Shown here piece by piece: positions 8,046-25,303 of a DNA stretch of 64,000 nt. The stretch is taken from contig MU004187.1 in assembly GCA_010093605.1 (NCBI GenBank), forward strand, positions 2,098,882 through 2,162,881. Direction: 5' to 3'. Positions within the stretch are counted from its first letter, which is position 1. The number at the start of each line of letters is the position of its first letter. The notes beneath the pieces were generated by a model. It was not told where the DNA came from. It saw only the letters and a list, made by a program, of their open reading frames with translations, and did no database searches. The DNA comes from Lophium mytilinum. Taxonomy: Eukaryota. Made by a program: the position numbers and the translations under genes.

Positions 8046-9112
8046 GGTTAGGATTGGAACAAAATTAAAGTTGTTATTAAATGCAAGAGAATTCGCAACG
8101 AGCAATGAGATAGATATATATTAGCAGCGATGCAGTCTGAGCTATGGGCACCCTAAGAGCCCGATGGAGTCCGTCGGAGGATGGGGTCAGCCAGATAAGA
8201 AGATGGTACGGCTCCTTCTCCTCACCATGGCTCTGGGCCATCCATCAGAGCGGCGTGGAGGTTACACCGGGTTCTCCGAGACGTCATCGCGTGCTGGATC
8301 CACCCGGAAGCACGAGAGGGGGGACGGTGCCGATCTGACCAAGCCGTTGCGGGCAAGAACACGCAGGCGCCGTTTGCTGACAAGGAGGGATGCCCTGGTG
8401 AGCATGCGCTCATGAGGCATAGGAATGCGCGCTACGCTGTCCAGCGTGGGATAGAGTAAGAGCGACGTCGGTCTCCGTAATGAGAACTTGTCATCCGAGG
8501 CTAGGAAGGGCTTGCGCGACAGCCTCTGTGGCCTCACGCGAGCAAGATATGAGAGTAACATATTTACCTGATCGTCCGCATTGTAGGCCTCCTCTGAGAC
8601 TAGTATCGAAGGGTTAGCATAAGGTTTCTTCCTAAAGATCCGAAGTGTGCCCATACTGCTCCCGCGGGCGTGAAGTGGCGGCTCATCAAAGGCTTCGAAA
8701 GCTTCTAGCGCCGTGTACCTGACCGTGCGATGGGGTGATCTGTCCCTCATGCCTCACTTCCATCCCGTGTATCAGAATACCTGCGGGTCTTAGTGCAAAC
8801 TCGAGATGCAACCGTGGGGTAGAAGGAGAGGATGTTACGACAAGCTCCTGAAGATGCTTGGCACGGCTCGGCATTCACTGCCCGCTTCTCGACCCCTCGA
8901 TGTGTCGACAGCGCCCAGTCTTACAGCTTCTTCGCGAAACTATCTCAGTCTCTCTCGGCTACGAAGAACAACAGCAAAGCCCTTATAACCTGTCAGAGTG
9001 CCCAGAGCGCTACTTCTCTCATGTGACCAGCATGACGGTGCACTTTTGTTCCACCTAATCCAGTACCGGACCACCGCATCGACTCTGCAAAGCTGCGATA
9101 CGGCGCGCAACG

Positions 9113-10681
9113 ATGACTCGGATGACCCGGCTGTGGAACCGCATATCTGCATCTCGCGCCCAGCGTTACGACAGACTACCATTAGGAGAACATGAACCCG
9201 AAAGTGCTCTGAAGAAACGACCCTCTCCCTACGCTGTCATTTGGCCATGGGCAATAGTCCTCACCGGTATTGCTTTCATTTTCTGGGCCTTTTCAAGGTA
9301 TTTCATCTCAAACTTCCCATTTCCTGTACTCATGAACAATAGGGTATACTCCATCGAGCCCCTAGAACCTTCGAAACCATGCGACTCGATCGATGAAGGC
9401 TATCGTTGCAGTCCCAACATCTCGCACTTCTGGGGCCAGTACTCGCTCTACTTCAGCGTCCCCTCCGATATACCTCCAGAACCTCCTAAAGGCTGTTCCA
9501 TCACCTTTGCCCAGATACTCTCAAGACATGGAGGCCGAGATCCAACGTTTGGGAAGAGTATCTGGTATAATTACACGATAAACAAGATACAGCAGAATAC
9601 CAAGGAATACAATAATGAGTTTGCGATCTTAGCCGACTATGAGTACACCCTCGGCGCAGATCAGCTTACAGCGGCCGGGAGACAACAGATGGTCAACTCC
9701 GGTATACGCTTTTACCGATTCTATGAAGCATTGGCGAGTAAGCATGTGCCATTTGTCCGGTCATCAGGGCAACATCGGGTCATTGAGTCTGGAGAAAAGT
9801 GGCTCGAAGGGTTTGGAAAAGCTAAGAATGATGGGAAGCCAGCACCAGATATGGTCATAATCAGCGAGGATGAGGGCTCGAACAACACCTTGAGCCATGG
9901 TCTGTGCACGGCTTTCGAAGACTCCCACACTGGCAGTGCTGCACAGGCTGCGTGGGCGGGGATATTCATTCCACCGATCCAGAAAAACGTCAACACCCAC
10001 CTTGTAGGCGCAGATCTTACACAGTCGGAGGTGATATACCTCATGGACCTTTGCCCCTTCGAGACAGTTGCACATCCCACAGCCAAGTTGTCTGGCATAT
10101 GCGGTCTCTTCAGTGAAAAGGAGTGGCAACAATACGACTACTACCAGTCACTAGGAAAGTACTACGGCTATGCGGACGGAAACCCTCTTGGTGCTACGCA
10201 AGGCGCGGGCTTTGTGAACGAACTGATTGCTCGGATGACGGGAAATCCAGTCGAAGACAAGACGTGTACGAACCACACCTTGAACTCAGATTCGAAGACA
10301 TTCCCATTAGACAGGCGACTATATGCAGACTTCAGCCACGACAACGACATGGCGAGCATATTTAGTGCTTTTGGTCTCCACAATAGCACGTCACCATTAT
10401 CAAACACAACTCTAGAAACCGTCAAGGATACGAGAGGCTATGCTGCCTCGTGGACTGTCCCGTTTGCAGCGCGGGCATACTTCGAGAAGATGATGTGCGA
10501 GGGGGAAGACGAGGAGTTTGTCAGAATCATCGTCAACGATCGTGTGGTACCGCTGAGCTATTGCGATGGAGACGAGCATGGTCGATGCAAGTTGAGTAGG
10601 TTTGTTGAGAGTATGGCATTCTCACAGGCCGGTGGACACTGGGACCAGTGTTTTGTGAAGGAGCAGGAGCTACATAATTGA
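9113..10681 (+). CDS. Histidine acid phosphatase / 3-phytase (PhyA-like) with N-terminal membrane anchor
   Basis: RHGGRDP catalytic motif, FSHDND proton-donor motif, WGQYS, SLGKYYGY and conserved Cys pattern; hydrophobic helix at residues ~42-60. Confidence 0.93.
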   Translation: MTRMTRLWNRISASRAQRYDRLPLGEHEPESALKKRPSPYAVIWPWAIVLTGIAFIFWAFSRYFISNFPFPVLMNNRVYSIEPLEPSKPCDSIDEGYRCSPNISHFWGQYSLYFSVPSDIPPEPPKGCSITFAQILSRHGGRDPTFGKSIWYNYTINKIQQNTKEYNNEFAILADYEYTLGADQLTAAGRQQMVNSGIRFYRFYEALASKHVPFVRSSGQHRVIESGEKWLEGFGKAKNDGKPAPDMVIISEDEGSNNTLSHGLCTAFEDSHTGSAAQAAWAGIFIPPIQKNVNTHLVGADLTQSEVIYLMDLCPFETVAHPTAKLSGICGLFSEKEWQQYDYYQSLGKYYGYADGNPLGATQGAGFVNELIARMTGNPVEDKTCTNHTLNSDSKTFPLDRRLYADFSHDNDMASIFSAFGLHNSTSPLSNTTLETVKDTRGYAASWTVPFAARAYFEKMMCEGEDEEFVRIIVNDRVVPLSYCDGDEHGRCKLSRFVESMAFSQAGGHWDQCFVKEQELHN

Positions 10682-11114
10682 GACCACATAGTTGATACCA
10701 CACAATCGATACCCTTTTCAAAATTGCATTCTTTCATCCGCATCTCAAATGTCACTGTATTCAGAATTATCATCTAGTGAATCAGGTCGCCCTGGTCATA
10801 GTCCCGATGGCTTCCGTGATGTCCAAAACACCAGCGGGATTGATGGAGCCAACAGCATCTCGATATATATCGGGACTCGGCACCAAAGCACGGGAGCGTA
10901 CAACGCACTGTAATTGGCCCACCATTCGCTCGGGTTGGCCTTCCGTCTTCCTCCGACCAAAATTTGTTGCTAGTCTCGCCAAGAGGTCTCTGCTCCGACG
11001 GCTCAGAGGAGCTTTGCCAGGAAAACATCCTCCAAGTTCCTAGCACCACCCATCACCACCTCAGCTTGCCCTCTCCACTCACTTCGTCATATTCACACGC
11101 CCACATCCACCACA

Positions 11115-12336
11115 ATGTCGGCTCCTCCTACATCCACCGGCTCGACAAAGCTCGATGCCATTAAGCAGAACGTTGCCGCCGCCGAACCCGGAAAACTCAC
11201 CGGCCTCCAACTGTATTCGCGATTCGCTTTTGCCGGTGCCGTCTGCTGTTCGGTCACTCATGGCGGCCTCACCCCCGTGGACGTGTAAGTTACTTTTGCC
11301 AATTTGGAGGTTATCGCTGGCTTCAATGAACGGTGTCGCATTCCCGAGACCCGCCTTGGTTTTCTCGGTACCTCAATGAAAAAGCGGCTAACACAACACC
11401 CACAGAGTCAAGACACGAATCCAACTCGACCCCGTCAAGTACAACAAGGGCCTCATCGGCGGCTTCAGGCAAGTCATCGCGTCTGAGGGAGCGGGCGCGG
11501 TATGGACTGGGTTTGGCCCGACCGCTGCAGGATACTTCCTTCAGGGCGCATTCAAGTTCGGCGGATACGAATTCTTCAAGCAACAGAGCATCAACCTCCT
11601 CGGATATGAGACCGCCTCGAACAACCGAACGGCTGTCTACCTGGCCTCCGCCGCCTGCGCTGAATTCTTCGCCGATATTGCGCTCTGCCCCCTAGAAGCC
11701 ACCCGTATCCGTCTCGTTTCGGAGCCCACCTTTGCCAATGGTCTCATTGGAGGCTTTGGAAAGATTGCGAAGACCGAGGGCTTCGGCGCTTTCTACTCTG
11801 GTTTCGGTCCCATCCTGTTCAAGCAGTAAGTTTTCCCTGGGGCCACCCAGCCCAAACCGGCTATTTCCGCAAACTCTGTGCTCATCATCAACCAGAGTAC
11901 CGTACACCATGGCCAAGTTCGTCGTCTACGAGAAGGTCTCGGAATTGATCTACAAGCAAGTTGACAAGTCCACTGCCTCCGGAGGAACCCAGACCGCCAT
12001 CAACCTCGGTTCTGGTCTTATTGCCGGTCTGGCCGCCGCCGTCGTGTCTCAACCCGCCGATACCATGCTCAGCAAGATCAACAAGACCAAGGGCCTTCCC
12101 GGAGAAGGTACCACCAGCCGCTTGATCAAGATCGCCAAGGAACTTGGTCTCAGGGGCTCGTACGCTGGTATTGGAGCTCGTCTATTCATGGGTAAATCTC
12201 TCTGCCCTCTCCCCGACCTCGAATCCCGTTTGTTGACCTCTTTACAGTTGGATCGCTTACGGCGGGACAATTTGCGATCTACGGCGATATCAAGAAGGCA
12301 ATTGGTGCTACGGGTGGTGTTGAGATCGCCAAGTAA
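11115..12336 (+). CDS. MIR1: Mitochondrial phosphate carrier (SLC25), 4 exons
   Basis: [66 protein letters not shown]; introns at about 11285-11406, 11826-11894 and 12192-12248. Confidence 0.95.
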
Positions 12337-13017
12337 ATATGACAACGCAAACAGCGGACGGAACGACGATTATGCAACCGCGGCTATGACAGGGCGTTCT
12401 TTTCTCAAGGGGAAAAGCAGGTCTGTCTTCGTTTTTGCATATCGGGCATTATTCGGGATTTTTCTTTTTTGCTTCCTCTACTACCCTTTTGGGTTGTTAT
12501 GTTATAGAGAAGAAGGTATATGTCCTGCTTGCGGTGGCAGGATCTGTAACAGTACGCCCTTAGTTAGTCTCACAGCAATAGACGGTGCGATTTTAATACC
12601 TCATGCATACTCCACCAGTTACGCAGGATTCCTCACTCAAACATGCCCTCACGATCGTGACATCACATTTCAGCCATCAGTCAACGCTGGAGCGCTGCCT
12701 CCTCATTTCCGGAAACGTGAGGAGGTTCGGCGAGCGAGTCCGTCTCACGGCACGCGAGTAAAGTTGACGTTGCCCGGACACCTCAGGAGCTTTGAACCTG
12801 TCAAACAGTGTTGCCCATGTCAAAATATGAGAGTCGACAGCTTGAACTCTCTTTCCTATACTATAGAGACTGTGGGTTGCGAAGTTCTCCTTTCCCGCGA
12901 GCGCACGTGATCCCTCCGCTCAATGTCATATATGATTGGCCGATGCTCCTCCGCACTTTTTGGTGTTTACTTGCCCCAAACAACCCCACCTCAACCCACC
13001 AGCCAGCTCCATTCACA

Positions 13018-14774
13018 ATGGAAACGACACAGCAATTCAAAAGTTAGCATCCTTCCAATCTCGACTACATATACCTAAACACTAATTCTTCCAATCCAGC
13101 AACCAACCACCCCGTCCCCTCCCCCGACTCCCGCCACATCGCATCCCTAAACGGCGCCCGCCTCCAAATCCGCTGCACCACTACCCTCGACCTTGTGCGC
13201 AGCTTTCCCCTCCCCACCGATTTCAATCCACGCGGTGCCCTCATCCGCTGGGCACCCGTCGCCCCTCGCAATGACAGAAAAACCTCCACAATTTCGCGCC
13301 GTGTGCTTGTCGCCGACGACGACGGCGCGCGCGTTTGGGACTTGAACGATGAAAAATGGAGCGCCGTAATCAGTAACGGCAGCGGAGGCATGGGAAAGAT
13401 TGCGCACGCGGAGTTTGGGCGAGACGGGGAAGAGGTGCTGCTGTGGAATGACTTCGGAGCTAAAGTCACCGTGTGGTGTCTCAAGACGGGACGCAGTGTC
13501 GAGATCAAGGATCCAAAGTTTGTGGGATGGAGAGGGTGTGCAAGCAGGCTGACATCTGGGGGAGAGGGTGAGGGGGTGGGCGTAATGGCGCTTTTGAGTA
13601 GGCCGGCTGGTCAGGATGTGGTTACGCTGCATGCGCCCAGGACGTATTTCGTGGTCAAGACGGTTGCGGTGCCGAGTGTGGATGCGCAGGGAATTAAGTG
13701 GAGTCCGGACGGGAGGTGGTTTGTGATGTGGGATGCTGCGAGCGCGGGGTATAAGCTGTTTGTGTACACCGCGGACGGGCATCTATATAGGATGTACGGT
13801 GGGGAGCTGGCGGAGGGCGATGTGTGCGGGCTAGGAGTCAGGGGCGTAGAGTGGACGCCTGACGGGAAGTACTTAGCGGTCGCTGGCTGGGATAAGAGGG
13901 TTACGCTTCTGAGTACAAGAACTGTGAGTTCGGCTTCGTATCTATCAAATTTGGAGTCCAAGAAGACTGATGACAACAGTTCTCACCCGTCGTATTCCTC
14001 GACCACACACCTTCGATTCATATAAGCACTGGTACTGTGTGGACCGAAATGGTCTCCGCCCTCTCTTCACGAAGCTACGCTGTTACAGCGCAACCGGTCT
14101 CCCCTCCCAAGGTTGCCTCACCACCAAACGACCCTAAGCTTGGAATATCGTTAACAACATCCAACGCTGATGGCACAATGATGGCTACGCGAGATGAGTC
14201 CACGCCCACAACGGTTTGGATATGGGATCTTAGCCAACTTGCGCCAAAAACCGTCATAATACAACATGCTCCCGTCAAAAATCTCCTTTGGCATCCTACA
14301 AGGCCAGACCTCCTGCTCATTCAATGCACACAAGACGATTCGATAATATATCTCTGGTCCGCATCTGGCGATGGGCCAGAAATCATCACCTTAGGCCTCC
14401 AAAAACCCTCAGGAACCGCTCCAGCCCGGCTAGAAGCTCGCTGGCTCAACACTCCCAGCGACAAGAAACCGACACTACTATACGGACACTCTCAAGGCTA
14501 CATTCTCCTCTGGCCGAATGGCCGAGACCCGATCTTACGGTTCGAACGCGACAGAGACGAGAGGGAGAGTACGCCCACCGGAGACGACGATAGTGAGGAC
14601 TCGCTATACGACATCCTAACCGGGCGGACTCCGATACCGAGGCTAGATGATACCATGAGCAATTACGAGAATGACGACGACGATGACGATACTGGGAGGT
14701 TGGAGGATACGTTTCGAGAGAAAAAGAAAAGGGGGGGAGGTATGGATGATTCCGGGTTGGATGAAATGTTTTGA
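13018..14774 (+). CDS. WD40 repeat protein, WDR8/WRAP73-like
   Basis: Spliced METTQQFK.. / PSPDSRHIASL..; IKWSPDGRW, VEWTPDGKYLAVAGWD, TTVWIWDL and LLWHP repeats; EIKDPK motif; introns near 13043-13098 and 13924-13978. Confidence 0.75.
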
Positions 14775-14820
14775 ATGCTGGTGGCTCTTGAACATGTCGG
14801 TCTTTTTGGCGTATTTGGGG

Positions 14821-14926
14821 CTGCCACTGCTTGGAGTACTTCAACAAGTTTCCAGATAGCCCAAAGCAATCTTATTGGTGTCTCTAAGATTGTATTGAAG
14901 CACCCCAAACAGCGGCAGACAGGTGT
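14821..14926. mobile_element. MITE-like inverted-repeat element, copy A (left arm truncated)
   Basis: ctgccactgcttggagtacttcaa (14821-14844) pairs with ttgaagcaccccaaacagcggcag (14895-14918); homologous to 45089-45211. Confidence 0.55.
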
Positions 14927-14946
14927 ATGCCCCACATGGAGACGTC

Positions 14947-14999
14947 GGTGATCCGGAGCGGTGGCAGGTGATTCGGAGCGGTGTAACCTGAGTATATAA
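14947..14999 (+). promoter_or_regulatory. 17-bp direct repeat containing CGG triplets, followed by a TATA box, upstream of the PAP2 gene
   Basis: ggtgatccggagcggtg (14947-14963) and ggtgattcggagcggtg (14967-14983); TATATAA at 14993-14999. Confidence 0.45.
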
Positions 15000-15412
15000 G
15001 AGGCCTACCTGACGCCTCTACACCCTTCCTTCTACACTCAACTTTTTCTAAAGCTCATTGGCGACACTCTGACGGCGCTGAACAAGTGGCAAAGACAGCG
15101 TCGTCGCCACCCCAACTCCATGGCACTTTCTCCATCTATTTGGCACTGAGTCGTTCTCCACGCTCTTACCAGTGCCCGACATGCCCGGCATGGCTTTCCT
15201 CATGTCTTCACCGCTGCTTTCCACACCTCTTCACCACGTCATGCCTTCCTCAACTCTTTCAACAGGTGTCAAAACACTTCCCTCCGTGGGCTGGCTCCGA
15301 CTCTTCTTCCACATCAGCCATCCAACATCATCAATCCGCACCCATACTCTCATCACTATCCTGTTAGCCTTCAAATCACTCCATACCGGCGTCAATCCTT
15401 CCGCACTCCATA

Positions 15413-16487
15413 ATGAGTGATAGCACCCTCGCCACCGTCAACAACCGCGCAGATGTCGAGGCCGGAAAGCCCGAATCCGGCTTCTTCCCGGACTGGCCAG
15501 GATTCCGTCACTTCTTCCGCAACTCACCACTGCACGCCGCCATAGAAATGTGGACTGTCTGGCTTGTAGGCGCCGTGTCCCTTTATCTATTTCTTCAACC
15601 TCCAGCCTTCCTACGGCCGCCGCTTTTTCAAGTATATCCAGACGGAACGGTCCCAGGTGACATTACCGTCCCTTATACTCCCGAAATCATCTCGACCATT
15701 GCGTCCGCCGGCATCGCGACGGGTGTCCCCCTCCTGGTGATAGTTCTCGTTGAATTCACCTGGATTCGAAGCTTTCGTAGCTTGATGGCTGCTGTACGTA
15801 CCCCCTTTGCGTTACTCTTCATACGTCACGTCCCTTTCTTACTGACAATGCGTATAGATACGGGGACTCCAAATGGCCCTACTCTACACCACTTTCGCCA
15901 CTGTTGTGATCAAGACGACTTTTGGTAGCCTTCGCCCACACTTCGTCGACGTCTGCGCCCCTCTGCCTCCTCTAAGTGGGACTGGTTTTGACAAAGACTG
16001 GTATAACGCCACAGTCTGTACCGGAAACGACGCTTCGCGTATCCGAGATGCCCAGCAATCATTCCCGTCAGGACACGCATCGAGCGCTTTCGCTGCCGCG
16101 ACGTACCTCATTCTGTGGCTTAATGCAGTCTTGAAAGTCTATGGCCCCTACCAAACGCCCGAGTGGAAGTTCCTCGCACTCCTAGGACCACTGCTCGGCG
16201 CCACCCTGATTGCACTGAGCAAAGTGGCTGATAGCTACCACCACGCGTCGGATGTTGTTGCTGGTGCCGCCATTGGGACCATTATCGCACTAGTGGCGTA
16301 CCGGGGTGCACATGCGAGTATTTTTGACTGGAGGTACGCATCTTCCACTCTTTTTCCAGCTTTGGTGGTTGCTAATACTGCTTGTTCGCGAAGATACAAC
16401 CACATGCCGCTGAGCCCGAGCAAGCCTTTCGACTACGAGACCGACTACGTCGACGTCCGCGACCTCCGCTTTGGAACCTCAGCGTGA
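15413..16487 (+). CDS. PAP2-family lipid phosphate phosphatase (DPP1/LPP-like), 3 exons
   Basis: KTTFGSLRPHF (C1), SFPSGHAS (C2), SKVADSYHHASDV (C3); hydrophobic helices; introns at about 15794-15858 and 16333-16393. Confidence 0.88.
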
Positions 16488-16703: not shown

Positions 16704-16969
16704 ATGGCCCCCTCTATGTCGTTAAATATGTAACAATGCCTAGACTTGTAACGTAAGTGTAAGTAATCTCTAGATGTAATGGCCCCCTCTACGTCGTTGA
16801 ATATGTGAACAATGCCCACAATTACTACGTAAGTGTAAGTAACCTCTGCATGCAATGGGCCCTCTACGTGGTTAAATATGTAAACAATTCCTAGACTTGC
16901 AATATAAGTGTAAGTAACCACTGCACGTAACGGCCCCCTCTACGTAGTTGATTGTATAAACAATACCTA
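16704..16969. repeat. Tandem array of about 3.5 copies of a 75-76 bp unit
   Basis: Units start at 16704, 16779, 16855 and 16930 (atggccccctctacgt...aacaatgcctagacttg...taagtgtaagtaa). Confidence 0.9.
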
Positions 16970-17013
16970 CCGAAGCTAGCACGTTCTTATTTTAGGTAGG
17001 TGTCTACCAGTTC

Positions 17014-17418
17014 TTGCTTGCTCAACGCCACCGTCAGGGGTGCCCCCATTAGCAAGTGCCAACTACGCCAAAAGGTAGTCGAAAACTCCGTTCCGTCAGG
17101 GGCGCCCCCACTGTGAGGTGTTTGGCACCGTCTGAAGTCCTCTGGCGCTGCCAACATTGGGAGATAGGATGTCAAAATTCAGGAGGTTCAGATCGTATTG
17201 CGTTGACGTGGGTGGGTCCAGTGTATGTTTGCTGCCGTCTGAAGGCCTCTAAAGGTGCGAAAAATTGCCGACTTCATCAAATGATAGTTCAATTTCTATT
17301 ACATTGACCTTCACATTGGGCACACAGGCACGAGTGTTTGCTCGCTCAACACCACTGTAAGGGTGGCCCCCATTAGCAAGTGCCGACTACGCCAAAAGGT
17401 AGTCTAAATCTCGTTTCC
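17014..17418. repeat. Pair of ~80-bp direct repeats (17014-17094, 17338-17418)
   Basis: Shared core cccccattagcaagtgcc(a/g)actacgccaaaaggtagtc with one mismatch. Confidence 0.85.
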
Positions 17419-17428
17419 TTGGCCAACA

Positions 17429-20400
17429 CTACTGTACGCGGACCTTCGAAGTGACATCCCTAACCCGCTCTCCCCTGAAGAACACGCTGACTACCAGCGC
17501 CGGGAACGTAATCTCAATCTCATACTCAACGAGATACCAAATCCCCTGATCATTCCTAAACTTCCGAAACTCGGCATCCGGATTTCTTCTCGTGAAATCC
17601 GTTCTGATCTCCGCGGCACACTGGACGATACATTGCTGAGAGCCTTGAGGGTAATACAAGTATGGATTCGGTGTGCCCCACTCAAGCGTCGGCAACCCGC
17701 GATCGTCCTCGAACAGGTAGATTTTCCCGGACGGGTCCAGCGTCAGGTTTGCATCAGCTGCCCACAGCTTATCCACCAGCACGAACGGGTCGACGTGGTC
17801 GAACTTGACCATTTTGGACGTCGGAATGCGTATTTTGTGGCCTGATTGGAGTGGCGCGCCGGCACTGAGTACTATGCAGACACAGTTGTTGCAGCGGTCT
17901 TGGTCGGGGCACCTCATTCGGAAGCGTTCGGGGTGCACGCCGGGGATGAAAAAGTCGGCGACCGAGAGGTAGTAGCTCTGCTGAGAGTATGCGCTGGCTT
18001 TCGGCAGGATGTCGGAGCTGAAGTTAGTCAGTCTGTCTGTGAGTCCGGCAGTGACCAGGCCCTTGACGACCGTTGCTTCGCTATCCATCGGTCGCACAAC
18101 GGTGCAATAGTTCCGTGGCATACGCTTTTTGATTTGCTGGAAGAGGTACTCGTTGGCCCCGAAAGAGCCGCAAATTAGCACGTACTGTTGTTGAAAACTT
18201 AGATAGTCGCTGACAGAGAGGGCTTGGACTTGTACGTTACCTGCAGATTGATGTTGCATGCTTGGACGGCGATGACTTGATTATTGATCAACTCTAAAAT
18301 CCTCTCGATGACAGGAGTGAAGCATCCCAGTATCTCTTCGTTGGTGAACGTCATGTATCCATCATCGATGTCTGCTTCCACATAGTCGCGCTCGATCCCG
18401 ACGTCGGTCGCCCACTTCTGGCCATTGTTCCTAAAATCGTCCCTGATACGGCTATCGAACTCTATGATGCTCTTTGCGTACACCCTGCCTGCAGTTTTAG
18501 ATCCATCTGGCAATTTCATTTTACGGACCTTGCTTCGCAGGATGTTGGCGAAGTTGCGATCCACCGCGGTATGTCTAGATGAAATATGTGTTAATAAACG
18601 GCTTGTGCTGCTAGGGTCGATTTACTCACCCGCAAGCATCACCACTACTGCCCGTACATTTCCGGACCTTGAAAGGAGAATTGCTGCGCACTTCGAGCGC
18701 AACAAGGTCCACAAAACTCTTACCGCAATCTACGATCAATATTCCGTCGTGATTCTTCGAATCGAGTAGCCCGGATCTGGTACAATAATGTGCTGACGCT
18801 TCCGGGCCTGGGATGAGAGTCACTCGGGGATCGTGAACATCTTGCACGTATCCAGCCTGTACGATAGCTTTCTTGAAAGCCGTTTTTGCACCTTCTGTCC
18901 ATATTGGAGGATGAGAAAAGTAGTATCGAACGATTGATGCATCGTTAGGAATTCGTGGACCGAGCGATTTCATTAAGGCGACCAGAGCGGCTTCGCGCAG
19001 GCGGGAAAGATAGTCGCCGACTAGATCTACAGCCGACTTTCCAGCTGGAAGGGGCGGTAAGGATTTGGCGTCGAGGTACGGATTTCCACCTTCCAGCTGC
19101 ATATACACGTGTAACCATTCTGCTTTAGTTGTTCCAATTTTGGGCTGTCCATTTGGGCCGAGAGCGTCGGCAGTGTCCAAGCCCCAACCTACAACATTCG
19201 AGGAAATATCGTAATATATTGACGATGGAACCCTGGGCTATTGATTCGTTAGCTAAAATGTGCTAGACAACAAGGAAGCCGTCAGAGCCTACTTTCGTAA
19301 TTAACCCAGCTCCTGGCCATTCCGTTATGATGTCTTCTCTAGCTTCAGTGTCAGTTGCATATGCAAAAGCAACCGACGAGTGCGTGGCCCCAAAGTCGAT
19401 ACCAATTATCAAGTGGGCGTTTGACTTGGCTGACGAGCTTTGATAAATCTGTGGAGCCGATGCAGGTTGATTTGAAGTCGTGCTTCCGTCATTCTTTGTG
19501 ACCCAAGGCATCGCCGCTGGCGCTACTACCTGCGATACTGGTGAAGGTCGATTCGATGACGCGTTCCGGTCGTTCTTTGTGACCCACTGTATTGGTGACT
19601 TGATGGGTGACGGCAGCTGTGAGGAGTTTGGCGAAGCGGTACCCGGCGAATAATGCGATGCAGGTCGCGTAGATGGCCGAGGATCATTGGGCTGGCTCAA
19701 GAGGAAATCTGCGGCCAGTTCCTCGTTCTTGTCGAAATTGAAATAAGCCTGGATCACGGGATCTAGCTCGAAACCGAGGCCACGTAGCTAGAGATATTAG
19801 AGATCAAAAAGAGTAAGAAAGGGAATAGTGAACTGACTCGCTCGATGGCGACCCGTTCCTCTTCTGTCACACTGATGGTGTGTGATCCAGGAGGGAGCTC
19901 GGCGACCTCGTCGATATCTTCAGCAAGAAGCTGGAGGAATTGCTCTGGGTTAGCGGCAATGAGTTTTGCCAGCTGAGGGTTTACGGTGGCTGTTTGCTGC
20001 AGAATCGGCTCTAACATATGGGGCTGTTGCTGAACAACTCGACAAAACTGCTGGAAGTGAGGATCGCTGCGGAGGAACTCGATGCTGCTACCACCAAGCG
20101 CTTGAGAAGTCGTAGAACCAGCCTCGAATGGATTTACAGGGTTTTTTGAGAGCACGGCCGACGGAGTATTTGTAGCGGATGGCGAACGTGTATGTGAATT
20201 GTATGGATTATTGATGTGAGGATTAGGAGATGACGATGGTGTTGAAGCGGATGGCGATCGTACATGGGGGCTGCTTGGATTTAGGTAAGGATTAGTAGAA
20301 GACGATGGCTTTCGGGACTGGATCTGTGCAGGGTTTGAACTGCCAAAAGGCGTAAGGGATGAGCTAGGCTGCTTATATCCTGGTCGGGCAGGCTGAGATT

Positions 20401-22158
20401 GAACTGATCTGGCTGGTGAGGGTTGACGAGGAGGAGGAGATGTTGGCCCTGTTGATCTTATAGATGTTGAATCTGGGGTGTGAACGGTACCGTCCCAGCG
20501 CTTTCCGGGGGACTCTGCAAGGGGACTATTTGCGGGAGGTAGCCCTAGACGGCTGCGGAGAGGATTTCCCGGCTCCTGGACTGACGGAACCAGGAAGTTT
20601 CCTGCTGCACTGGTCGTGTCAGAAACAATGTCCTCGTGGACTAGATCGCGCAAAGGCCTTGCTAAGTATTGGAGAAACCCAGCGTCAACCTCGACGTCGT
20701 ACTTTGCAGGTAAGAAGCCACGGCAGCCCTCAGCTTCAGCCATGTCACCCTTTCTTTCGTGAATGAGCGCGAGAAGTGCCATGGATTCGTGAAATGGTGC
20801 ACTTTCTTTGCCCCCAAGCCTCCGTCTCCCCATCAGCGCCTTCTTACAGTATCGGATAGCGGCATCATGTGCGTCGCCTTGAAGCTTTAGAAGAGCTAAG
20901 GCATGGAGACCGTCATATGCCAGCGGCTCCTTGACCTTTTTAAGGGTAGTGAGGCTAGCAAGAACATTTTCGGCATCTCTCCATCGCGCTTGTTTGCCGT
21001 ACGCGTATGCTTGCATCAACCTGATTTTGGAGACCCCACCTGGCAAGTCGTCTGTTGAACGGCTCACGACTTTGCATAGGAATCTCTCGGCATTCGGATA
21101 GTCTCCGGCTGTGAAACTTGATATAGCGAGGTCATTGAAGTTCTTCACAAAGTCTCTCTCCATATCGGAGTCCGGATCGGAGTCTTCTAGCTCGACATCT
21201 TCGGTCGTACCGCTAACTGATTCATTGGCTTCTGTGCCTTCTTCTTCGATTGTAGGAGGAGGTATCCAGTTTTCAATGCGCTGGGCCTGATCATCGCTCA
21301 AAGGATCGCCGTAAACAGAACCGCCCCATATCGTACCCTCGCCTACAACTGTGCTGGCACTGGAATGGAATGATTCTGCAACACGAACGAATTGTCTCAA
21401 GTTGCGTGAGATGCGTTCGTTATCCTCTTGCACGTCGGAAGATGGCGGCTCGGAAGAATCGTTTCGAGACCTAACCGCAACTTCTACTCTGCCAATTTGG
21501 GTTTTAAGATCACCAAGAACCCGGGACATTGATTCTTGGGACGAGCCGCTTCTTAGCAACAAGAGTCTAGAATGATGTGAGCACTCCCCGAATGAAAATA
21601 TACGCATACATATGAGACGACGGCAATCAAAGAGCTTACACGTTGATCATTTGGAAGGCGGATTGCATTGCACTGTTATGGGAATGTACCTGCTGCCGGA
21701 AGGCCGTGATATCTTTCATCATCATGTTCAACTTTATCGACATTGTCGGCTTCCGGAGGAACCCTCTCCCCAGGAAGCTGGTCTTCTGCACCTCTACGAG
21801 CCGCTTGTCCAATTTCCCTAGCGTAATCTGGCAGTCGTCCAGCGACCCTCGGACTGTGATCCATAGATCCCGATCTCCAGTTTTCTGAGTAGTCGCAAGA
21901 AGCGGATTCTGCTTCCAGGAGTGGCCGACTGCATTGAGGGCGCGTTGAAGACCATTTATCTCTTCGCATAGGCCAGCTACACTATCGTCTACGCCTCGGG
22001 CATCGTCTATGAAGGTGTAAAGTATCCCTGAGACCTTTTCACTGCGAATCAGTCTGACGCTCGATACGCTGGACACTCCAGCACCTCGGGTGGGTACTGA
22101 CCTTGATACAGAGGCCAGCGATGCCTGCGGCGGACGATGCAATGGACAAGGGATCCAT
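17429..22158 (-). CDS. Chimeric 1457-aa protein: HeLo-like fungal N-terminal domain + TPR-like repeats + Ser/Pro linker + Rad23-type XPC-binding/UBA + HSPA12-type Hsp70 domain
   Basis: Exons 22158-22102, 22034-21640, 21566-19838, 19787-19293, 19237-18630, 18574-18241, 18184-17429. All six introns are GT-AG (50-73 nt) with compatible phases; total 4374 nt with no internal stop. Markers: MDPLSIASSAAGIAGLCIK start; LEPILQQ..NPQLAKLI..VTEEERVAIERLRGLGF..VIQAYF..DKNEELAADFL; IIGIDFG..EDIITEWPGAG..GYMTFTNEEIL. Confidence 0.85.
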
Positions 22159-22483
22159 CGCAGCATTTTACCGGCAAAGCTTCTGGCGGAGGACAAGTTG
22201 TCCATGAAGTGACTGCGAGAGCCGCCTTCCACGGGCGCCATGAGGGGCGCTTCCAGATCGCGAGGCTGAGTTCTCGGTTGTCTTCTGCATTTCGAGTTAG
22301 GATAGTTCTAAACCTTGGAAGCTGGGATATTCACGTGATGCTGCTCTACGGCATACTCCATGAGTTCCCCCGCTGCAGCATCCCGTACCAACGCGTCTTG
22401 CATCGCGTTCTTGGAAACTTTTCTACAGCACGCCCGAGATACTCAATCTCTGGGCACTCAACCTCTTATTGTCCCCGTTCGCG

Positions 22484-25303
22484 ATGATTCAGAAGCCATT
22501 TAGACCACCGCTGCTGACCAGGAAGCCGGCCGAAGCTCCCCGACCAGAGTTCAATCACGCAGCAGATACAGAACCGCCCTCCAAAAAGCGACGCATCTCC
22601 TCCAACGATGACGATAGCCAGTTCGATGCTGTCACTACAACTCTTTCAAAACCACATAACCACGTCAACACAGCCCGAAAGCCATTGGTTCCGGTCCGCA
22701 ATCCTTCGAGCTTGAGCAGCGCTCCAGCAAAACCGTCTGGAGGAGTAGAGGGATACTATGTAGTCTTGTGGCGCAAGTTCACGATGAAGAAAAACAAAAC
22801 CTGGGACGGTGACGGAGTCCTTGCCGTGTTCAACGGATACGCATATCTCCAAGATATCTCCGGAAGGGAGCTTGGGAAGACCGCCTGCACCTCGCCATTA
22901 CTACCAGGCTCCACCCTTTCCGTGGGAGGAAAAGATGTCGAGGTTGACTCTTTAATCTCGAAGGAAGACTTCCTCGCTGGCAAGCCCTTTTTGGGCAAAA
23001 TGTCGACTGCTGCAGCGCCAGCGCCAGTGTCAGACCCAGAACGCAGACCACTTCCAAAACCCAAGCTTAAAGTGAAAGAGGAGAAGATAGCAGCCCGCCA
23101 AGTAGAGGTTCTGAATGTTGCCGCCCCAGCCAGCAAAGCTACCCAGAGCAAGTTCAAGAATCCTTTGCTATCCAATACTGTCATGACCAAGCCTGTCGAC
23201 AAAGAGACTCCCCTTCCCCGGCATGATCCAACTACAGAAAACGCCCTCGTCATGAAAAGACCGACTATACGTCCGCAGGGCAAGCAAATTGTGGACGTGG
23301 TAGTAGATCCTGTTCTCTCCAAGCATCTCCGGGACCATCAACGTGAAGGCGTCCAGTTCCTGTACGAGTGTGTGATGGGCATGAGATCTAACGGCGAAGG
23401 GGCCATACTTGCGGATGAGATGGGCCTAGGAAAGACTTTGCAAACCATCGCGCTACTCTGGACTCTACTCAAGCAGAATCCAATCTACCAAGAAGGTCCC
23501 GTGGTGAAAAAGGCACTCATTGTGTGTCCCGCTGGACTTCTGAACAATTGGCGAAGAGAGTTTAGAAAGTGGCTTGGAAATGAAAGAATTGGAGTCTTCG
23601 TTGTTGAAGGGAAGAACGTTCGCCTGGCTGACTTCACTAAAGGAAAAGCCTACAGCGTTATGATCATTGGCTATGAAATGCTTCGTAACGTGCAGGAACA
23701 ACTCAAGAAGGGTAGCGGGATCGATATTGTCATCGCTGATGAAGGCCATCGACTTAAGACCGCGAACAACAAGGCAATGCTAGCAATACAGTCCCTTAAC
23801 ACGGACCGAAGGATCATACTTTCAGGGACCCCGCTGCAGAACGATTTGAGCGAGTTCTACACGGCTATCGACTTCGTCAATCCAGGCTTATTAGGAAAGC
23901 GGAACGTGTTCAAGAAGGAATTTGAGAACCCAATCATGCGAGGTCGGCAACCAGAGGCAACCGCAAAGGATCACGAAAAAGGTGAAGCCCGATGGCAGGA
24001 ACTCGTCTCGATTGCAGGCCAATTTATGATCCGCCGCACTGCCGATGTGCTGGCGAAGTATCTGCCGCCCAAGAGCGAGTACATCTTGTTCTGCAAACCA
24101 ACACCTGTTCAGTCAACCGTTTACACGAACGTGCTAAAGTCTCCGTTTTTCTCCGCAGCTCTTGGGAACACTGAAACCGCTCTGCAACTCATCAACATCT
24201 TGAAGAAGGTGTGCAACAGCCCGACGCTTCTCAAAGCTAAAAATCCCGACGATGCTCCTTCAGAGATGCTAGCGAGCTTCACAGCTGCCATTGCACCTTC
24301 AGTACTCTCATCCAATCGGTGCAGCTCCAAAATCAGGGTTCTCGACGCCTTGCTACATCGCATCCATACGAACACCGATGAGAAGGTTGTCATAGTCTCG
24401 AATTACACGTCCACACTAGATATCATCGGTCGCCTCCTTTCTTCTCTGGACTATGCGTTCCTCCGGCTGGACGGCTCCACTCCAGCGTCGAAACGCCAGG
24501 ATCTTGTGGAACGCTTCAATAGGACTAGCCAGAAGAGTTGTTTCGCTTTCCTGCTCTCCGCCAAATCCGGCGGTGTTGGCCTTAATCTGATTGGCGCCTC
24601 CCGACTCGTTCTATTCGACTTAGACTGGAATCCCGCCACCGACCTTCAAGCCATGGCGAGGATACATCGCGATGGACAGAAGAAACCATGCAAAATCTAT
24701 CGTTTGCTTGTGCAAGGCGCTTTAGACGAGAAGATCTTCCAGCGACAGGTCACCAAGCAGGGTCTCGCGGACGCTGTTGTCGACAAAAAGGCCAGCGCCG
24801 CCAGTTTCTCCCACGAGGAGCTAAGAGACTTGTTCAGCTTGGACGAAAAGGATCACTGCCAGACACATGACCTGATTGGATGCACATGCGAGGGTAAAGG
24901 TCATGATGCCCCTATCGTACCCATCACTTCCGCGGAACTGGTCTTAGACACCGAACCTACAGATGTGGTTGATAGCGATGAGGAACTTCCAGACCTACCA
25001 ACTCTGCTGAGAGCATCTCAGGTCAACATGGAAGAGCAAGAGCAGCGACTGAAAGAGCAAAGAGAGGCGAGAACCAAGCTAACAACCGACGGAAAGCCAA
25101 AATTGAGGTCTCTCATGCAGTACCAGCACCTGGATCCGCGCTACCTGTCCCCCACGAGAGCAGAATCAGAGTCGGAAGGAGCTGTTCGAGAAGACCATGT
25201 CGACATCGAGACGCTTATGGATGATGACATTTTGCTTGATATTCTGAAAGCAGGAGATGAGCATTGCAGCATCGGCTTCGTTTTTGCGAAGATGTCGTCT
25301 TGA
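22484..25303 (+). CDS. RDH54: SNF2-family DNA translocase Rdh54/Tid1 (RAD54B-like)
   Basis: LADEMGLGKTLQ, DEGH, SGTPLQN, LSAKSGGVGLNL and QAMARIHRDGQ motifs; N-terminal WRKFTMKKNKTWDGDG motif typical of Rdh54/Rad54B. Confidence 0.9.
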   Translation: MIQKPFRPPLLTRKPAEAPRPEFNHAADTEPPSKKRRISSNDDDSQFDAVTTTLSKPHNHVNTARKPLVPVRNPSSLSSAPAKPSGGVEGYYVVLWRKFTMKKNKTWDGDGVLAVFNGYAYLQDISGRELGKTACTSPLLPGSTLSVGGKDVEVDSLISKEDFLAGKPFLGKMSTAAAPAPVSDPERRPLPKPKLKVKEEKIAARQVEVLNVAAPASKATQSKFKNPLLSNTVMTKPVDKETPLPRHDPTTENALVMKRPTIRPQGKQIVDVVVDPVLSKHLRDHQREGVQFLYECVMGMRSNGEGAILADEMGLGKTLQTIALLWTLLKQNPIYQEGPVVKKALIVCPAGLLNNWRREFRKWLGNERIGVFVVEGKNVRLADFTKGKAYSVMIIGYEMLRNVQEQLKKGSGIDIVIADEGHRLKTANNKAMLAIQSLNTDRRIILSGTPLQNDLSEFYTAIDFVNPGLLGKRNVFKKEFENPIMRGRQPEATAKDHEKGEARWQELVSIAGQFMIRRTADVLAKYLPPKSEYILFCKPTPVQSTVYTNVLKSPFFSAALGNTETALQLINILKKVCNSPTLLKAKNPDDAPSEMLASFTAAIAPSVLSSNRCSSKIRVLDALLHRIHTNTDEKVVIVSNYTSTLDIIGRLLSSLDYAFLRLDGSTPASKRQDLVERFNRTSQKSCFAFLLSAKSGGVGLNLIGASRLVLFDLDWNPATDLQAMARIHRDGQKKPCKIYRLLVQGALDEKIFQRQVTKQGLADAVVDKKASAASFSHEELRDLFSLDEKDHCQTHDLIGCTCEGKGHDAPIVPITSAELVLDTEPTDVVDSDEELPDLPTLLRASQVNMEEQEQRLKEQREARTKLTTDGKPKLRSLMQYQHLDPRYLSPTRAESESEGAVREDHVDIETLMDDDILLDILKAGDEHCSIGFVFAKMSS

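Follow-up and report, generated by a model that had tools for sequence, protein, structure and literature searches.

The 64,000-nucleotide window analyzed here comes from Lophium mytilinum (GenBank assembly GCA_010093605.1, contig MU004187.1, positions 2,098,882 to 2,162,881 of the forward strand). On its minus strand there is a seven-exon gene that encodes a protein of 1457 amino acids (aa), with features listed in Table 1. From the N terminus the protein has a PigL_N (HeLo-like) domain, a conserved helical region that we call 'mid', tetratricopeptide repeats (TPR) of the kinesin-light-chain (KLC) type, a Ser/Pro-rich linker, a piece derived from Rad23, and a domain predicted to have the fold of an Hsp70 nucleotide-binding domain (NBD). 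The gene is real, expressed and chimeric, and belongs to a Mytilinidiales-type ascomycete. The most probable reading (we put it at about 0.7) is that it is a member of a recurrent fungal family with the order PigL_N, mid, KLC-type TPR, Ser/Pro linker and HSPA12-like domain, into the linker of which the 3′ third of the organism's own RAD23 has been inserted in frame.

The exon model was built from the minus-strand stop-to-stop open reading frames (ORFs) between positions 17429 and 22307 together with the sequence itself, and the exons were joined by script. An initial annotation of this DNA had joined several ORFs through six canonical introns into one 1457-aa frame. This is confirmed. The joined exons amount to 4374 nt, i.e. 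1457 codons and a single terminal stop, and all six introns (67, 73, 50, 55, 55 and 56 nt) have GT..AG borders. The spliced product is identical letter for letter to the 1457 aa of KAF2497271.1 (P0159 in our local protein set), labeled 'hypothetical protein BU16DRAFT_484929 [Lophium mytilinum]' at NCBI and 'UBA domain-containing protein' in UniRef. An independent annotation pipeline has therefore arrived at the same model. The fusion junctions had been placed within single exons, and that is where they lie. The TPR region and the XPC-binding domain of the Rad23-like part are inside one stop-free frame (exon 3, 21566-19838), and the Rad23-like and Hsp70-like parts meet within exon 4.

A contig of 4759 letters from one public sequencing run aligns to positions 17000-22017 with 0 differing letters. 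The type of the run is only guessed to be RNA, and read depth was not used as evidence. At its five joints the contig omits 56, 55, 55, 50 and 73 nt, which are exactly introns 6, 5, 4, 3 and 2, and both borders of exon 3 are confirmed in this way. The contig has intron-less joints, and is therefore as expected of a spliced mRNA; it bridges the TPR, Rad23-like and Hsp70-like parts in a single sequence.

Table 1. Features of the Lophium mytilinum gene, with positions in the 64,000-nucleotide window.
Feature	Position	Strand	Residues and remarks
Whole coding region	17429..22158	minus	7 exons, 1457 codons + TAG stop at 17429-17431
Exon 1	22102..22158	minus	aa 1-19, MDPLS... start
Intron 1	22035-22101	minus	67 nt, GT..AG
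Exon 2	21640..22034	minus	aa 20-150; with exon 1 forms the PigL_N / HeLo-like domain
Exon 3	19838..21566	minus	aa 151-727; 'mid' region, TPRs, Ser/Pro-rich linker, XPC-binding, start of UBA2
Exon 4	19293..19787	minus	UBA2 and start of Hsp70-like domain
Exons 5, 6, 7	18630-19237, 18241-18574, 17429-18184	minus	spliced frame
Introns 3, 4, 5, 6	19788-19837, 19238-19292, 18575-18629, 18185-18240	minus	contig joints
TPR domain	20720..21175	minus	~aa 282-433, kinesin-light-chain / LGN type
Rad23-derived block	19680..20146	minus	~aa 625-763, split by intron 3 (19788-19837)
XPC-binding	19916-20080	minus	aa 647-701, PF09280 69.1 bits, cut-off 26.4
UBA2	19701-19849	minus	aa 724-756, PF00627 29 bits, cut-off 22.4
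Tandem duplication	19461..19586	minus	81-nt, in UBA2-to-Hsp70-like linker; two 45-nt copies, 78% identical; WVTKND... twice
Hsp70/actin-fold nucleotide-binding-like domain (predicted)	18026..19415	minus	~aa 852-1259, exons 4-7
C-terminal region	17432..18025	minus	~200 aa (aa 1260-1457), strand-rich; pLDDT < 50

The part of the protein between the TPRs and the Hsp70-like domain matches RAD23 chains in the PDB by sequence, down to E = 5e-24. BLASTP comparison with Lophium's own Rad23 (P0166, 393 aa) gives a gapless alignment of residues 641-763 with Rad23 residues 268-390, in which 90 of 123 positions are identical (73%). The homology reaches further upstream, where PVNPFEA in the block aligns with PVNLFEA in Rad23, the Gly-rich spacer having been deleted. 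The copy corresponds to the last third of Rad23, comprising the XPC-binding (STI1-like) domain, the spacer and the second ubiquitin-associated domain (UBA2), without the final three residues. The ubiquitin-like domain (UBL) and UBA1 were not found; Pfam gives XPC-binding and one UBA, and the alignment with Rad23 begins only at residue 268. In Rad23 itself this region binds Rad4/XPC, Png1 and ubiquitin.

Of 1192 short hits to the block, Lophium's own Rad23 ranks first at 73%, by a small margin, as many Dothideomycete Rad23 sequences lie at 69-74%. The insert has 71-74% identity to the 12 Rad23 sequences closest to that of Lophium, 69-70% to those of Bipolaris and Parastagonospora, and 62-69% to the other 12. 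Between Lophium Rad23 and 11 close orthologues, identity over the same block is 93-96%. Because the insert has only 71-74% identity to the nearest Rad23 sequences while Rad23 orthologues keep 93-96% among themselves, the data fit a within-lineage copy of RAD23 that later diverged fast. This divergence is uneven. Using 26 Rad23 sequences, we find that the insert retains 59 of 70 Rad23-invariant columns but only 31 of 53 among the variable columns (Fisher p = 0.0019). Since the substitutions avoid the invariant columns, the pattern points to a domain on which constraint still acts to preserve the fold. Neither the frame nor intron 3 is disrupted, and the spliced contig includes the block.

The block sets this protein apart from its relatives. 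The homologue P0010, which is 70% identical over the core (N-terminal domain, mid and TPR), runs from the TPRs through a homologous Ser/Pro linker to the start of the Hsp70-like domain with no Rad23 block. For a local comparison KAF2497271.1 was cut into six parts and searched against proteins P0001-P0158, and a match to both the core and the Rad23 part occurred in none of these 158 other proteins. Among proteins of 801-2550 aa only five match the block. Four of them have the UBL of Rad23 (PF00240), and the fifth has PF04934 with UBA and XPC-binding. They were rejected as examples of the same architecture, since they look like canonical Rad23 merged with a neighboring gene. P0131 and these five long hits are fungal models in which canonical Rad23 is fused with a neighbor, probably by annotation read-through (one carries Med6, PF04934), and such merged models call for caution in architecture searches that use XPC-binding plus UBA. 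A metagenome scan with exon 3 gave 123 pattern matches and a single locus confirmed by tblastn, at 35% identity and in the low-complexity linker only; it yielded neither an orthologue nor genomic DNA of RAD23. By these sequence comparisons the Rad23 piece is the only one of the parts of this HeLo-TPR-Hsp70-like protein that is lineage-specific.

The N-terminal domain and the TPRs were identified in several ways. The HeLo-like N terminus previously proposed from the MDPLS-type start is supported by Pfam, where PF17111 (PigL_N, formerly Helo_like_N) matches aa 1-151 of the whole protein with 30.4 bits against a cut-off of 27.2. The same family scores 35.1 bits in the orthologue P0009, and is matched by 24 of the 28 aligned family members. 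In an AlphaFold2 (AF2) model of a 94% identical orthologue there are long helices at 3-30, 36-61, 74-108 and 125-157. The Pfam TPR hits, including TPR_12, fall under the cut-off for KAF2497271.1. A family profile searched against PDB sequences finds KLC TPRs at E = 8e-17, and TPR proteins only, with no Hsp70. The TPR model of the 94% identical orthologue (residues 286-443) superposes on the Pins/LGN TPR with a VIA Z score of 17.3 and a root-mean-square deviation of 3.1 Å over 156 residues. The protein thus has both an effector-type N-terminal domain and a repeat domain, in the form of PigL_N and KLC-type TPR. HeLo-like (PF17111) is described in PMC9815663 as an MLKL-like four-helix domain of pore-forming type that occurs at the N termini of fungal NOD-like receptors (NLRs) and in their partner effectors, and in PMC7082219 PF17111 is listed beside NACHT and HeLo among families related to heterokaryon incompatibility. 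No NACHT or NB-ARC domain was found by Pfam in KAF2497271.1 (E ≤ 0.1) or in the 28 aligned family members (E ≤ 0.001). The earlier description of the protein as lacking an NTPase is nevertheless too strong, because an ATPase-like domain of actin/Hsp70 fold is present, albeit with a degenerate phosphate-2 loop.

The evidence for that domain is largely structural. The C-terminal 609 residues were modeled together with 15 homologues using AF2. For model residues 1-411 the block-wise predicted local distance difference test score (pLDDT) is mostly 80-96 but falls to 51-66 in blocks 21-50. Foldseek aligns the model with Ssz1 (E = 3.5e-18) and with the NBDs of DnaK, BiP, mortalin and Ssb1, with E values overall from 1e-15 to 3.5e-18. 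The template modeling (TM) scores by target are 0.69-0.75 against NBD-only Hsp70 chains, at 13-17% sequence identity. In the Atlas, which is based on a protein language model, fungal clusters of 575-626 aa named 'Hsp70 protein domain-containing' are found with a score of 0.97, and a chordate HSPA12A cluster is also near. The models therefore predict an Hsp70 NBD fold for the C-terminal part. Pfam HSP70 (PF00012) gave no hit at E ≤ 0.1 with the whole protein or single exons, and no Hsp70 chain was present among the PDB sequence matches obtained with the protein or the family profile. A PDB sequence match of exon 5 to lactate dehydrogenase was discarded as chance (E = 0.21); Pfam gives nothing for Hsp70 in exons 5-7. 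The TPR, the Rad23-derived XPC-binding and UBA2 domains and the Hsp70-fold end named in the initial annotation are nevertheless all borne out by Pfam, profile or model.

The phosphate 1 motif of the Hsp70-like domain, GIDFGATHS, looks near-canonical. Phosphate 2 in canonical Hsp70 has the form D-x-G-G-G-T-x-D. Here it is DCGKSFVD, lacking Gly-Gly-Thr, and it is likewise degenerate in 12 of 15 aligned homologues, with CGGG kept in three. Given a degenerate loop in most of these sequences, ATPase activity is doubtful across much of the Hsp70-like subfamily. With only 13-17% identity to true Hsp70 proteins, the domain was not taken up as a copy of a housekeeping Hsp70 but is an old module of the family. 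The suggestion that the protein carries two integrated copies of host proteins therefore holds in part. It applies to the Rad23 block, which is 73% identical to the organism's own Rad23 and variably present, but not to the Hsp70-like domain, which is the family's usual end. The C-terminal region that follows is conserved in P0001, where the match extends to residue 1142 of 1147. Exon 7 is without a Pfam hit.

Among proteins of 1009-2880 aa, a search with exon 3 gave eight hits, all fungal and 1011-2128 aa in length, that cover the N-terminal 52-70% of the query. In the precomputed domain list PF17111 is present in six of the eight, PF13424 in five and PF09280 in none. An exhaustive search of representatives gave 1134 proteins at E ≤ 0.001, the best 150 of which were listed. 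A match to core plus Hsp70-like domain was found in 23 of the 158 proteins compared locally, several of them fragments. Named members come from Fusarium, Chaetomium, Cylindrodendrum, Dactylonectria, Cosmosporella, Mariannaea and Coniochaeta, and a Diplogelasinospora grovesii homologue bears the NCBI name 'heat shock 70 kDa protein 12B'. PigL_N, TPR and Hsp70-like domain thus form an architecture that, judged by sequence, recurs in several ascomycete groups and stands in the databases unnamed or misnamed. The open-access literature searched contained no paper treating HeLo-like and Hsp70 as one architecture, and on HSPA12 it contained only unrelated animal or medical papers; the core family appears to be undescribed there. 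The architecture had been thought new. For the core this is not so, as it recurs in relatives of ~1000-1300 aa at NCBI, but the Rad23 capture is unique among the proteins examined.

Homologues of the HeLo-TPR core with different C-terminal modules had been anticipated, and they exist, with Hsp70-like, RanBP1, ankyrin and β-propeller ends. Two paralogues of Lepidopterella palustris, OCK76734.1 (P0046) and OCK73352.1 (P0094), end in RanBP1 (PF00638, E ~1e-35; E = 2e-33 to a solved RanBP1). Their UniRef name, 'Ran-specific GTPase-activating protein', hides the N-terminal death-type domain. Two core-bearing representatives have an ankyrin-repeat end. In Zopfia rhizophila KAF2186889.1 (P0055) residues ~600-978 are modeled in Atlas as a seven-bladed β-propeller, with TM ~0.6 to lactonase/WD40-type structures; this tail has no Pfam hit at E ≤ 0.001. 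Several other core-bearing proteins have long tails that lack any domain assignment. In a tree of the core the members with an Hsp70-like end fall in three separate places, with other end types between them. This is a quick maximum-likelihood tree of 26 rows, unrooted, with some truncated models and with support from the Shimodaira-Hasegawa-like approximate likelihood ratio test only. It suggests an old Hsp70-like end that was repeatedly exchanged or lost, the direction of change being inferred.

The linker has its own variation in the Fusarium homologues (P0002-P0008). At ~590-640 of P0002 there are ~50 conserved residues (…GLRAIGWTDDLIKENQQTIIDYFKF…) amid low complexity, with no Pfam hit, and this stretch may be another small inserted domain. 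The idea of a decayed UBA was rejected, as a local phmmer comparison of P0002-P0008 with the Rad23 block gave no match at E ≤ 1e-3.

The surroundings of the gene were examined through Pfam and open frames. On the plus strand at 22364-25303 there is a divergent neighbor, an open frame of 979 codons with SNF2-related (E = 5e-74) and Helicase_C (E = 4e-21) matches, which by domain content is a Rad54-type chromatin or repair helicase. Between the opening of its frame and the start codon of the gene studied lie ~200 bp, and a second contig of the same run covers 22413-22600. That a repair helicase adjoins a gene with a Rad23 fragment may be a coincidence. Some 460 bp downstream of the stop codon, at 16704-16969, is a 75-bp tandem repeat of 3.5 copies with 80% matches, which accounts for repeated short ORFs there. 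Upstream of these, also on the plus strand, are frames for a histidine phosphatase branch-2 protein (9059-10678), a mitochondrial-carrier fragment (11696-12907), WD40-type frames (13048-14771) and a PAP2 phosphatase (15858-16484). Pfam finds no NLR or transposon signal in the frames of 9059-16484; the context is a housekeeping one.

Comparison with known systems helps to place the protein. It is like the fungal HeLo-like/PigL_N proteins, including NLRs with TPR, in having PF17111 with an MDPLS-type start, KLC-type TPRs and a variable, sensor-like end. It differs from fungal NLRs in that NACHT and NB-ARC hits are absent from all 28 family members, the TPRs directly follow the N-terminal region, and an Hsp70-fold domain is present where no NLR has one. 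With Rad23 (P0166) it shares XPC-binding and UBA2, colinear and gapless, but the block lacks the UBL, UBA1 and Gly-rich spacer and sits in the middle of a protein of 1457 aa, so that it is a paralogous fragment and not Rad23. The HSPA12-like atypical Hsp70 proteins, or 'actin-like ATPase domain' proteins, of fungi and animals are alike in the Hsp70 NBD fold; here the domain is fused behind PigL_N-TPR and its phosphate 2 is DCGKSFVD. The integrated decoys of plant NLRs offer another likeness, i.e. a partial copy of a conserved host protein in a modular protein of death or immune type that is absent in close relatives. A parallel is found in the putative decoys of Sordariales NLRs, where PKinase was copied from CHK-2 according to PMC12258605. 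In contrast to those decoys the carrier here has no nucleotide-binding oligomerization domain (NOD), and a decoy role would be an extrapolation from the likeness. A further comparison is with OCK76734.1 and OCK73352.1, which have the N-terminal domain, mid and TPR core and an end copied from a housekeeping protein. In these two RanBP1 replaces the Hsp70-like end and is not an insert in the linker, and they form their own clade in the core tree. The Rad23 of Lepidopterella palustris is among those closest to that of Lophium.

As to how the protein may work, the HeLo-like N terminus would be an output module of membrane-targeting or cell-death type; we take it as such because of the descriptions of PF17111 in PMC9815663 and PMC7082219. 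The TPRs and the variable C-terminal modules would then restrain this module and have a sensing role. With the Rad23 block the protein would gain a putative binding surface of ubiquitin, Rad4 or Png1 type, which could recruit it to ubiquitin/proteasome traffic or serve as bait for factors attacking Rad23. The Hsp70-like domain would be an old regulatory or sensor module. Given the degenerate phosphate-2 loop it is possibly a pseudo-ATPase, and it might act as a conformational switch that depends on nucleotide or ligand. Some prokaryotic conflict systems offer a remote analogy, in that HSP70 proteins were proposed to replace the NTPases of the STAND class (signal transduction ATPases with numerous domains) there, as stated in PMC7159879.

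A number of points weigh against a PigL_N-TPR-Hsp70-like family member with a captured piece of RAD23. Introns 2-6 are each removed exactly in the one contig, but the contig ends at 22017, so that exon 1 and intron 1 are outside its cover. Their basis is the GT..AG signals and the gap-free colinearity with the N termini of homologues. Taken alone the contig is also compatible with shorter isoforms, and cannot prove a single molecule. The PF17111 match of KAF2497271.1 exceeds the cut-off by only 3 bits, and Foldseek and VIA searches with a model of the N-terminal region plus TPR matched the TPR only, giving no structural match for the HeLo-like fold, where the N-terminal domain was not searched alone. 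In the insert 11 of the 70 Rad23-invariant positions are altered, for which reason it may no longer bind the partners of Rad23. Lastly, only one species shows the architecture with the insert, and the 94% identical model from Mytilinidion resinicola is a 454-aa partial that ends before the linker.

Could the chimera be an artefact of gene modeling or assembly that fuses separate genes? Some public Rad23 models are merged with their neighbors, and the Mytilinidion orthologue is annotated as a partial. Yet both fusion junctions fall within single open exons, one contig bridges all the parts with no differing letter and five exact intron removals, and the independent annotation gives the same 1457 aa. 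An artefact is scarcely credible. It is easier to imagine that the gene is genuine and the Rad23 fragment a functionless accident of exon shuffling, carried along in a tolerant, disordered linker. The block occurs in one lineage only and has diverged far faster than Rad23 itself (73% compared with 93-96% between orthologues). The Ser/Pro-rich linker also contains the young 81-nt duplication, and so does tolerate insertions. Nevertheless this reading is unlikely. The substitutions in the block avoid the Rad23-invariant positions, it has 0 gaps over 123 residues, and it has preserved its frame, its internal intron and its place in the spliced contig. The four modules also invite an explanation in terms of proteostasis, in which TPR, STI1-like XPC-binding, UBA and Hsp70-like domains would connect ubiquitinated or misfolded clients with a chaperone-type ATPase, much as ubiquilin or Rad23 does as a shuttle factor. 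Co-chaperones and ubiquitin shuttles make use of all four classes of module, and the TPR model superposes on Sti1 TPR2B, Sgt2 and STUB1 with Z = 11.8-13.2, a range common to any helical repeat. Such an adaptor is very unlikely. PigL_N is not a chaperone module, the phosphate-2 loop is degenerate here as in most homologues, the UBL through which Rad23 docks to the proteasome is absent, and the RanBP1, ankyrin or propeller ends of relatives argue against a dedicated chaperone core.

The initial annotation favored a NOD-less immune or cell-death receptor with two integrated baits, Rad23 and Hsp70, as copies of proteostasis proteins that are targeted by pathogens. A receptor of some kind would agree with the HeLo-like N terminus and with TPRs of the type common in fungal NLRs, and the core family swaps its C-terminal modules, two Lepidopterella palustris paralogues having a housekeeping-type RanBP1. 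The Rad23 block was copied recently and in part from a host gene and is variably present, and the PDB entry that ranks first by sequence bears the title of a Vpr-RAD23A fusion. HIV Vpr, and in plants the phytoplasma effector SAP54, target Rad23. For Sordariales NLRs, PMC12258605 proposes putative integrated decoys. The Hsp70-like part has no PF00012 hit, is only 13-17% identical to Hsp70 NBDs, and is the commonest C-terminal module of the family, occurring in three separate clades; moreover there is no NOD, and the insert is from one genome only. The two-bait receptor is not supported, and we judge it distinctly unlikely. A decoy role for the Rad23 piece by itself is possible, by analogy, and the idea of a bait gains some weight from the RanBP1-ending paralogues together with the decoys suggested in PMC12258605. 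Its boldest form would have PigL_N-mid-TPR as a NOD-less death or immune platform that repeatedly integrates host-protein baits (Rad23 and RanBP1), with the Hsp70 fold as a switch replacing the STAND NTPase. This too is unlikely. The reading that we prefer is that of the recurrent family into whose linker a piece of RAD23 was captured.

The protein itself was already annotated, as 'hypothetical', and the Rad23 capture is unique among everything examined. Work on fungal immunity and cell death has centered on NLRs with NACHT or NB-ARC, and integrated baits have so far only been suggested in fungi. The family described here is an unstudied NOD-less architecture with a HeLo-like N terminus, TPRs and interchangeable ends, in which the Lophium gene provides a datable capture of part of a host ubiquitin and repair adaptor. 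With its swapped ends, the family makes it possible to test directly for decoy-type sensing that operates in fungi without NLRs. If the NOD-less bait platform were true it would be the first integrated-decoy-type system in fungi outside the NLRs, and Rad23 and proteins of the Ran cycle would be predicted targets of effectors of mycoparasites or mycoviruses. Even without a decoy role, the gene is a clean natural case of a multidomain protein made by insertion of a gene fragment into a disordered linker.

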